From Barthelona sp. PAP020 (taxonomy: Eukaryota), in the NCBI GenBank assembly GCA_040182905.1, contig JARQWU010000026.1, forward strand, positions 1-64,000: 64,000 nt of DNA, written 5' to 3'. Below are positions 31,304-33,214 of the stretch, in pieces (the stretch's first letter is position 1; every line of letters begins with the position of its first letter). A model generated the notes under the pieces. The model did no database searches and was not told where the DNA came from. It saw only the letters and a program-made list of their open reading frames with translations. The position numbers were made by a program, and so were the translations under genes.

Positions 31304-33214
31304 ATGTTAAACCTTAATTTACCACAAAATGATGAAGAGCTAGATATGAGGATGCCTTTATCACCAAACACTCGATTAGATGTATTATTAGGTGCGCGCA
31401 GTCGTTCAACTTCTGATTTGTTTTCTTTGACCAATAATAATGATACAAATTCGATAGAGTCTTCCAGTAGTACTCCAAAAACTTTTATTGAACATGATCG
31501 AATCCTTATTGAAGAAGATAGGCATAACGAGTTTAAAGCTGTTCAAAAGACTAAAAATTTATTTGGCACCATAACTAAATTTGTTGGACAATATGTTTGC
31601 GCTTTTTTAAATACTGAAGGTGGATGTTTATGGTTGGGTGTTGAAGATGATGGAGAAATTGTTGGATTAAAAATCCCCAGAATGGAAAGAGATAAGCTAA
31701 GATGTCAAATAGATGGTACAATTAACATGTTTAGACCTCAAGTTGATATTAATTTGTATGAAATTTTATTTCATCCCATATTAAATGCTGATCTTGAAGT
31801 GATTCCTGATTTGTATATTTTGTGTGTTGTTGTAAAAAAAGGAAATCAACCATTGTATTTTAATAATAACTCATCTGCTTATATTAGAAGAGATGGGGGA
31901 ATTAAAAAGATGAACCAAAATTTGATAGATGAACGTGTTTTTCGGTCAACAGATCGATATCAGGATTTGATTATGAATAGCTTTTATGGACGAAATAGTG
32001 AATTGGCAGAAATTGAAAAATTTTTGTCCACTTCCTACAATAGTTGTCAAGTTATTGTTATTTCTGGTAGTCCTGGTACAGGAAAGTCTAGTTTAGCAGC
32101 TGAAGTGTTAAAATCCATAAAGGAACAGCATATCAGTGTGTATATTGATATGCATGCAACAAAAGGTCATATTGATGCAATATCAGCCAGAAAAGCTATT
32201 TGTAGAATTCTCCTGTATAAGCTTAGCAAATCTAAGACAGATGAAGCAGCTCATATTCCTGATATTTCATTTGATGATATTTCTATTGATACCATTTATG
32301 GAAATCTCTTTGATGTTCCACGTGTTTTATTAGTAGAAAACTGTTCTGATTCTCAATTATTAGAAGAATTAATTCCAGCACAAGGAAAAGTAATCATGAT
32401 TGTCACAAGTCGAAGACCAGTCGGTATTGCTTTAAATAACGTTGATTTTCTATCTATCAGTTTAAAGCCTTTGTCTCGTCATGCTGGTGCCTTATTGGCA
32501 TTGTCACATTCTTCTCGCTTGTCACAAAGATTAGCGTTAAAATTGTGCGATTTGGCAGCTGGATATCCACAGGCTATTAAAATTATGGCCCAAATCGTTG
32601 AACATCGAACAAATATTGCACCCGAGGATATTTTACAGATGTTGGAAGATTCTTTATCAGAGCGGTTACATCTCCTTGATGCTGTTTTCAGAAGAGTTGT
32701 TGACCAACTTGATTCTCTCATCATTCAGAAAATGAAATTATTGAGTGTGTTTCCTAGCAGTTTCAATTTGGAATTATTTGAACTTTTGATGAATGAATTT
32801 AACCCTGGTATTAATAAAACACCATTGGAAGTGGTTACAGAATTGAAAGAACAGTCTTTACTGTTATTTGATGAAATATCAGAAAGATATCAAATGTTTG
32901 ATATGGTTAGGTGGTATATTTTGGAGCAAACTCCAGATTCTCAAAAAGAAACTCTAGAAAAAGCTTTTATTGGTGCAGTTGTTAAGATGTTGGATCAAAA
33001 TCGAAGGCCAAAACATTTGATGCCATTTATTACAAATGAAAATATGAATATTTCGTTTGCTGTTGAATGTTTATTGAAATATTTGAAAGATGACACCTCA
33101 CTGAAGAATGTTGCTGCGAAATTTGTTAAATTGTTGGAATTGTCATCAGATCAATTATCTTCTCAAAGATTAGTCACAAATTTAAAGACCTTAGCTCAAA
33201 ATATTTGTGATTAA
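31304..33214 (+). CDS. Schlafen/AlbA_2 nuclease domain fused to an NB-ARC-like STAND NTPase (NLR-like)
   Basis: AlbA_2 motifs: EEDRHNEFK, VCAFLNTEGGCLWLGVEDDG, AYIRRDG. STAND motifs: FYGRNSEL, Walker A GSPGTGKS, Walker B VLLVEN, IVTSR, GYPQAI (GxP), and winged-helix MFDMVR (MHD-like). Confidence 0.9.
   Translation: MLNLNLPQNDEELDMRMPLSPNTRLDVLLGARSRSTSDLFSLTNNNDTNSIESSSSTPKTFIEHDRILIEEDRHNEFKAVQKTKNLFGTITKFVGQYVCAFLNTEGGCLWLGVEDDGEIVGLKIPRMERDKLRCQIDGTINMFRPQVDINLYEILFHPILNADLEVIPDLYILCVVVKKGNQPLYFNNNSSAYIRRDGGIKKMNQNLIDERVFRSTDRYQDLIMNSFYGRNSELAEIEKFLSTSYNSCQVIVISGSPGTGKSSLAAEVLKSIKEQHISVYIDMHATKGHIDAISARKAICRILLYKLSKSKTDEAAHIPDISFDDISIDTIYGNLFDVPRVLLVENCSDSQLLEELIPAQGKVIMIVTSRRPVGIALNNVDFLSISLKPLSRHAGALLALSHSSRLSQRLALKLCDLAAGYPQAIKIMAQIVEHRTNIAPEDILQMLEDSLSERLHLLDAVFRRVVDQLDSLIIQKMKLLSVFPSSFNLELFELLMNEFNPGINKTPLEVVTELKEQSLLLFDEISERYQMFDMVRWYILEQTPDSQKETLEKAFIGAVVKMLDQNRRPKHLMPFITNENMNISFAVECLLKYLKDDTSLKNVAAKFVKLLELSSDQLSSQRLVTNLKTLAQNICD

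Follow-up and report, generated by a model that had tools for sequence, protein, structure and literature searches.

A Schlafen/AlbA_2 lobe joined to an NB-ARC-type STAND module in a repeat-less protein of Barthelona and other protists

A single intact gene of Barthelona sp. PAP020 encodes a Schlafen/AlbA_2 lobe, an AfsR-like NB-ARC STAND module and a helical arm devoid of repeats, an arrangement that our analysis confirms. The gene lies in a window of 64 kb, by which we mean the whole stretch of DNA analysed (contig JARQWU010000026.1, positions 1 to 64,000). Its GC (0.324) and GC3 (0.228) values are within the range of nine neighbouring ORFs, and every motif named in an earlier sequence-only reading of this DNA was found where that reading had placed it. 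The features are the following.

31304..33214, + strand: whole gene, 636 aa, a single uninterrupted reading frame
31304..31468, + strand: N-terminal extension, aa 1-55, Ser/Thr/Asn-rich, disordered (pLDDT <50), unalignable and not conserved
31487..31939, + strand: single Schlafen/AlbA_2 lobe, aa 62-212 (Pfam E 2.5e-17), equivalent to the catalytic C-lobe of SLFN11
31511..31537, + strand: E71-x4-E76-x-K78 nuclease motif (motif check), kept in 39 of the 41 family rows covering the site
31637-31651, + strand: GVEDD acidic loop (sequence motif)
31646..31648, + strand: D115, third acidic residue of the predicted active site (profile alignment to SLFN11)
31976..32458, + strand: STAND nucleotide-binding domain (NBD), aa 225-385 (Pfam, profile alignment, motifs including GR)
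32066-32089, + strand: Walker A (sequence motif within the NBD)
32324-32341, + strand: Walker B, aa 341-346, reading hhhhEN (sequence motif)
32405-32413, + strand: sensor-1 TSR, aa 368-370 (sequence motif)
32459..32710, + strand: helical domain 1, HD1 (profile alignment, AF2 model, motifs)
32561-32569, + strand: GxP, aa 420-422 (sequence motif within HD1)
32711..32929, + strand: winged-helix domain, WHD (profile alignment, motifs)
32894-32902, + strand: MHD position, reading MFD, His absent (sequence motif within the WHD)
32936..33214, + strand: HD2-like helical arm of about 90 aa (five helices in the AF2 model; HHalign probability 100, query aa 224-627)

An AF2 model computed from 25 family sequences (pLDDT 84.2, pTM 0.65) consists of the disordered aa 1-55, the AlbA lobe, NBD, HD1, WHD and five C-terminal helices; a preceding one, computed from 6 sequences, reached a pLDDT of 62 and was set aside as poor. 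About 12 residues lie between AlbA_2 and NBD. The absence of an LRR, TPR, WD40 or ankyrin sensor, asserted by the sequence-only reading, holds insofar as no repeat family occurs in the 636-aa protein among the Pfam matches listed (25 of 29 families). Thus the tripartite plan of an NLR is incomplete here: in place of a C-terminal LRR or other repeat sensor there is a tail of 94 aa with five helices. That reading had the ORF end about 100 aa beyond the STAND module, which agrees with the 94 aa counted after the WHD; the tail is, however, not featureless. NBD, HD1, WHD and arm align as a unit with TPR-bearing STANDs (18-sequence alignment, HHalign probability 100, query aa 224-627), the tail corresponding to the helical arm that precedes the TPRs, and the protein stops approximately where the TPRs begin. 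By this alignment the two arms are homologous.

A profile of four sequences was compared with 1.84 billion representatives and the best 150 proteins were taken, 47 of which carry the AlbA_2 and STAND fusion; an architecture search had been proposed by the sequence-only reading. Together with the query and P0004, and after removal of 12 near-duplicates or cluster mates, these form a family alignment of 49 rows. Nine rows end before or just after the WHD and the remaining 40 are full-length, with no Pfam repeat in 35, TPRs in four and LRRs in one. Transcript-derived members (P0003, P0011, P0021) end 106-197 aa past the WHD without repeats, which makes a hidden sensor exon unlikely. The closest relative is a protein of Barthelona sp. 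PCE with 32% identity. Two metagenome loci show the same architecture through to the arm, in pieces that lie in several reading frames, the pattern that introns would give.

Of 27 proteins looked up, 12 have an organism name, each a different species, and none is an animal, plant or fungus. They belong to Metamonada (Barthelona PCE, Eukaryota sp. TZLM1-RC, Dysnectes, Paratrimastix, Blattamonas), Amoebozoa (Cavostelium, Endostelium, Mastigamoeba, Mastigella, Pelomyxa), Ichthyosporea (Creolimax) and Apusozoa (Thecamonas, with TPRs); the lineages of seven of the 12 were checked. The family thus spans these four groups and is probably old.

Several proteins deviate from the common plan. In P0016 (Paratrimastix pyriformis, KAJ4455189.1) the AlbA_2-STAND module (aa 1695-2272) stands at the C-terminus of a GCN2 gene model with RWD, kinase and HisRS-like parts. 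GCN2 is a kinase that senses uncharged tRNA; if the model is real and not an annotation merge, which is possible, a putative tRNA-cutting domain is joined to it. P0031 (Blattamonas nauphoetae, KAK2954749.1) has an LRR_6 tail that is absent in its sister P0025, being either a true AlbA-STAND-LRR protein or a merged gene model. P0035 (2337 aa) contains 19 tandem AlbA_2 matches. P0140 (463 aa) has a STAND and arm near the query (28% over 335 aa), reads MMD at the MHD position and lacks AlbA, as a fragment or effector-less paralog. The AlbA subfamily of the query is also found as a tandem pair in an Anaerolineaceae protein (L084:241-1686) and fused to cold-shock, UBA or DUF533 domains (P0068, P0120, P0131, P0146).

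The AlbA_2 domain with its E-x4-E-x-K and GVEDD motifs had been recognised by the sequence-only reading, and Pfam bears this out: PF04326 SLFN_AlbA_2 matches aa 71-204 with E 2.5e-17 and 63.9 bits, above the curated cut-off of 25.3. A profile of four family members matches SLFN11 over the N-terminal lobe (E 4e-10). In structural comparisons of the AF2 model 157 residues of the lobe align with the effector domain of SAMD9 at an rmsd of 3.0 (Z 14.9) and 136 with SLFN12 at an rmsd of 4.1 (Z 14.6); with Z 14-15 to the SAMD9, SLFN12 and SLFN11 lobes its predicted fold is that of a Schlafen C-lobe. The lobe may also resemble animal SLFNL1. The pattern E-x4-(E/D)-x-K plus a third acidic residue is present as E71, E76, K78 and D115, which in the profile alignment fall on the E-x4-E-x-K and the second Asp of the GVDD loop of SLFN11, an Asp that is presumably catalytic. 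Three to four acidic residues make up the AlbA_2 active site (PMC12680541). Across 41 complete family rows the D115 position is Asp in 35 and Asn in four, Asn at the equivalent position being an Avs9-killing change (PMC12680541). The nuclease residues are lost in two of the 41 rows, P0013 and P0017, which keep the STAND and are possible decoys or regulators. R129, R133, R195 and R211 are retained in 41-46 of the 49 rows. Mean pairwise identity (24 rows) is 0.40 for the nuclease lobe, 0.30 for the NBD, 0.24 for the WHD, 0.23 for HD1 and 0.17 for the arm, so that, judged from these alignments, the predicted nuclease lobe is the best-conserved domain. An Atlas search with the AlbA part returned only matches below 0.9. 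A word-based search with aa 60-215 for other AlbA_2 relatives gave no match at E 1e-6 among 84 candidates and is uninformative because it also missed the known relative P0002.

The STAND assignment is also supported. Pfam AAA_16 matches aa 227-305 (E 3.5e-10), and NB-ARC scores 22.8 bits, just below its cut-off of 23.5. The four-member profile matches AfsR across the whole NBD-HD1-WHD with E 1e-21 and Roq1 with 1e-10. NBD, HD1 with GxP, WHD, GR, Walker A and sensor-1 TSR are all present, hence the full NB-ARC-type module proposed from the motifs stands. Structure prediction and Foldseek, two of the checks suggested by the sequence-only reading, lead to resistosomes, CED-4 and the SAMD9 effector domain. 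The best structural match of the AF2 model is a wheat resistosome (Z 23.1, rmsd 3.5, 311 aligned), in agreement with Foldseek, followed by WRR4A (Z 23.0, rmsd 3.3, 305 aligned) and, third, CED-4 (Z 18.9, rmsd 4.0, 347 aligned), the latter over model residues 214-589 and thus reaching into the arm. ORC/Cdc6 proteins rank lower (Z up to 14.8) than resistosomes and CED-4 (Z 19-23), which argues, in line with the sequence-only reading, that the NTPase is a STAND and not a generic AAA+ protein. The model fits active-state structures with an rmsd of 3.3-3.5 and ADP-bound Apaf-1, the Dark monomer and PH0952 with 17-20; being uncontrolled and open to prediction bias, this comparison gives a hint at most. 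A homodimer prediction for aa 58-545 scored 0.00, but was run without using the alignment and is counted neither way.

The residues of the nucleotide switch are altered throughout the clade. The MFD of the Barthelona protein, previously singled out as an autoinhibition variant of this protein, occurs in one of 43 family rows and so is not a family signature; what is shared is the loss of His at this position. In the main protist clade (49 rows, namely the 48 rows forming a clade in a STAND-only tree plus P0053) the MHD His is kept in a single row and Asn stands in its place in 25. At the first acidic position of Walker B 48 of these 49 rows have Glu, a count to be read knowing that the search profile was built from Glu-bearing rows. 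Other STANDs (n=130) have the MHD His in 111 and the Walker B Asp in 124 cases, and the His is kept in all four AlbA+TPR rows. Instead of the canonical Walker B Asp and MHD His, the query thus has EN and MFD, and a clade-wide loss of the MHD His together with a Walker B Asp-to-Glu change is shown. Since repeat loss and His loss are mostly confined to a single clade, they count as roughly one event in evolution and not as an independent correlation. The MHD motif is required for ADP binding and autoinhibition (PMC8813719). CED-4 is constitutively ATP-bound with no apparent hydrolysis, and since the Walker B consensus is hhhh(D/E), Glu may be tolerated (PMC7583971). We infer that the switch changes point to CED-4-like control in trans, not to a helper NLR.

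A tree of the concatenated domains was calculated from 37 rows (LG+G4), leaving out rows with <60% of the AlbA lobe and with the root assumed on P0041/P0046. The query is sister to Barthelona PCE (100/99), the metamonads group together (87/83), as do an amoebozoan-containing group (98/99) and three eukaryote-side TPR forms (99/95); the placements of Endostelium and Creolimax are less firm. An AlbA-only tree (117 rows, 140 columns, with long-branch warnings) recovers the metamonad group (99/91); in it eight rows, P0041/P0046 and an Anaerolineaceae protein among them, nest next to the form of Thecamonas (99/96). A quick STAND-only tree (184 rows) unites the 48 rows mentioned above (SH-aLRT 87) and places P0041/P0046 among TPR-bearing STANDs. 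With the root assumed, these trees fit an old vertical inheritance from a TPR-bearing ancestor. The Barthelona sister (100/99) and the neighbour-like GC3 make a recent horizontal acquisition unlikely. Viral contigs gave three loci, each merely a motif match of 24-25 residues, and among plasmids 96 records match, none covering >80% of the protein. In none of the 80 loci kept from prokaryotic genomes did an AlbA ORF also match the STAND profile. Among 401 genomes of the class of G001, the AlbA subfamily of the query occurs in three and is never fused to a STAND NBD; a bacterial donor is therefore not established.

The window is gene-dense and AT-rich, and ORFs of at least 150 aa cover 86% of it, which indicates that it is intron-poor. 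The neighbours are two kinases, a WD40, a BTB-MATH, a deubiquitinase, an hSac2 domain, a 4Fe-4S protein, a GKRP-like protein and a protein of 6718 aa; they are ordinary and show no defence clustering. No second STAND or AlbA is present within the 64 kb. On the strand of the gene the next 21 kb hold the hSac2-domain ORF and the 6718-aa ORF, with no repeat-family match. The latter runs uninterrupted over 34227-54383, with a hydrophobic N-terminus and hydrophobic C-terminal segments, one Ephrin_rec_like match and no Pfam match in the first 5000 aa; from these features it is likely a surface protein. A WD40 coding region at 3651-4607 is split by a stop into two ORFs, and the sequence near 4040-4170 looks, by eye, similar to the WD40 segment within the kinase gene (23223-25364), possibly as a broken duplicate.

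Our preferred reading, held tentatively and at somewhat less than even confidence, is that of a latent RNA-cutting switch which, like CED-4, would be nucleotide-loaded and kept inactive by a partner protein, not by a sensor of its own. A partner would restrain the loaded protein, and its release would lead to assembly and then to tRNA cleavage. That the lobe would cleave tRNA or another structured RNA is highly probable, as tested relatives with this active site, SAMD9 (PMC10246899), Avs9 (PMC12680541) and RorSlfn5 (PMC13056530), are tRNases or cell killers. Self-assembly of the STAND would, on balance, gate the nuclease by pairing single lobes: a single-lobe Schlafen rebuilds a two-lobed site through ATPase-driven oligomerisation (10.64898/2026.05.29.728809), and analogy to SAMD9, Avs9 and SLFN-pAgo makes an RNase gated by oligomerisation plausible. 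The isolated AlbA_2 domain of Avs9 is, however, toxic alone (PMC12680541), so that oligomerisation is perhaps dispensable. With neither ADP lock nor repeats left, the off state could be imposed in trans, a step we regard as nearly as probable as its opposite. The output, with slight preference, would be to stop translation or kill the cell as a defence against viruses or intracellular bacteria; we infer this role for the Barthelona protein. Against a loaded defence switch speaks that the 12 named members come from 12 species and that metamonads and amoebozoans group in the tree, unlike expanded immune-receptor families.

These same observations, a single named copy in each of 12 species and a gene tree following host groups, would also suit a stress or housekeeping role, in which a conserved enzyme of stress response or RNA quality control would cleave tRNA or rRNA in starvation, encystment or translation control and the STAND would act as a nucleotide-sensing scaffold. 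Ordinary neighbours and the Paratrimastix module at the end of a GCN2 kinase gene model (P0016) agree with it. Yet the tested proteins with this active site (SAMD9, Avs9, RorSlfn5) are defence effectors, some members are degenerate (P0013, P0017) or carry TPR or LRR tails, the fusion to GCN2 is seen in a single gene model, perhaps an annotation merge, and the one-copy count covers the 12 of 27 looked-up proteins that have an organism name. We consider this reading unlikely. A stand-alone single-gene defence protein, in which the roughly 90-aa arm would bind the trigger, so opening the STAND and switching on the nuclease, appears improbable to us as well. The arm does vary more than any other domain, with an identity of 0.17 and one column in which conservation reaches 75% or more, and short C-terminal extensions have been proposed as sensors in bacterial NACHT proteins, such as the SNaCT tail of bNACHT01 (10.1101/2022.07.19.500537). 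Its homology to the structural pre-TPR arm of TPR-bearing STANDs means, however, that the variability may reflect weak constraint, and the loss of the His lock is left unexplained.

In the sequence-only reading the protein was possibly a helper NLR triggered in trans, a view under which another STAND, acting as sensor, would nucleate its ring. It lacks a sensor of its own, and STAND rows without detected AlbA exist in the clade, such as P0140, though these may be fragments; the window contains no sensor STAND, and NRC2/3/4, which are among the structural matches, are chains of 730-885 residues. These helper NLRs retain LRRs. We think the proposal very unlikely. Hardly credible is a repeat sensor on a spliced downstream exon, or an ORF that is a truncated relic: five of the 40 full-length relatives do bear TPR or LRR tails, but 35 are repeat-less, P0003, P0011 and P0021 with transcripts among them, the following 21 kb on the strand have no repeat-family match, and the window is intron-poor, 86% of it being covered by ORFs of at least 150 aa.

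Cell-autonomous immunity of free-living protists is poorly described, and in this family, which occurs in four distantly related groups of eukaryotes, a predicted Schlafen nuclease is coupled to a switch of the NLR type. Its minimal form of 630-700 aa is easy to express and would allow STAND control to be tested in a protein free of repeats and of the MHD lock, and the family lets one test whether tRNA-cleavage defence or stress control predates animals. Carried to its broadest form, our preferred reading of a loaded switch would describe an ancient eukaryotic Schlafen-STAND lineage of metamonads, amoebozoans, ichthyosporeans and apusomonads that shed TPR sensor and ADP lock together, becoming a CED-4-like tRNase for suicide or defence under the restraint of a guard partner, and it would add, in protists, a third and independent Schlafen immune system of eukaryotes to SLFNs and SAMD9; as a whole this remains speculative and rather doubtful. 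A literature search covering mostly papers outside subscription found no published description of the repeat-less protist form. PMC12680541 reports no structural match to SAMD9/Avs9 in protozoa, and six names or identifiers of the family are absent from four of its supplements; its AlbA_2 tree used EukProt, so domains of the family may be unlabelled tips there. Five STAND-related terms are absent from 11 of the 26 supplement files of PMC13056530. PADLOC and NCBIfam gave no match above cut-off, and the PADLOC profiles (2023 library, prokaryotic) produced short P-loop matches alone (E 2e-4 or weaker).

The joining of Schlafen and STAND as such is not unique and is already in print for SAMD9/9L (PMC5445408, PMC10246899), Avs9 (PMC12680541) and bNACHT34 (10.1101/2022.07.19.500537). 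SLFN11/12/13/14 share the catalytic lobe with its E-x4-E-x-K plus Asp site, but have a two-lobed nuclease with a linker and no STAND, and SLFN11 carries a helicase. By sequence the closest STAND is that of Streptomyces AfsR and related STAND-TPR proteins, whose NBD-HD1-WHD-arm aligns with ours, whereas they have DNA-binding or other N-termini, TPR sensors, a Walker B DN and the MHD His. P0041, an AlbA_2-STAND-TPR protein, belongs to the same AlbA subfamily as the query and keeps TPRs, Walker B DD and LHD. A bacterial AlbA_2-NB-ARC cluster of the Atlas (61 members, 840 aa) has AlbA_2 in 90% and NB-ARC in 43%. CED-4 of C. elegans likewise combines an effector, an NB-ARC and a helical arm, although its effector is a CARD adaptor instead of an enzyme and, with 11% identity and no close sequence relationship, it serves as an analogy only. 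In bNACHT34 (SLFN-NACHT) an N-terminal Schlafen RNase is fused to a STAND (10.1101/2022.07.19.500537), with NACHT in place of NB-ARC. Bacterial Avs9 unites an AlbA_2 with an acidic active site and a STAND, and follows the cell-killing logic proposed here, but keeps SIR2, TPR and OB (PMC12680541). In animals SAMD9/SAMD9L offer the nearest eukaryotic parallel, an AlbA_2 tRNase effector upstream of a STAND-like NTPase; SAMD9 differs in its SAM, SIR2-like, TPR and OB domains and its GGT/S P-loop (PMC5445408). The order AlbA_2 - SIR2-like - STAND - TPR - OB of SAMD9 and Avs9 is not that of the Barthelona protein, which has no TPR or OB and none of the SAM or SIR2-like parts either, and in which, within 636 aa, AlbA_2 is joined directly to an AfsR-type NB-ARC with GKS.
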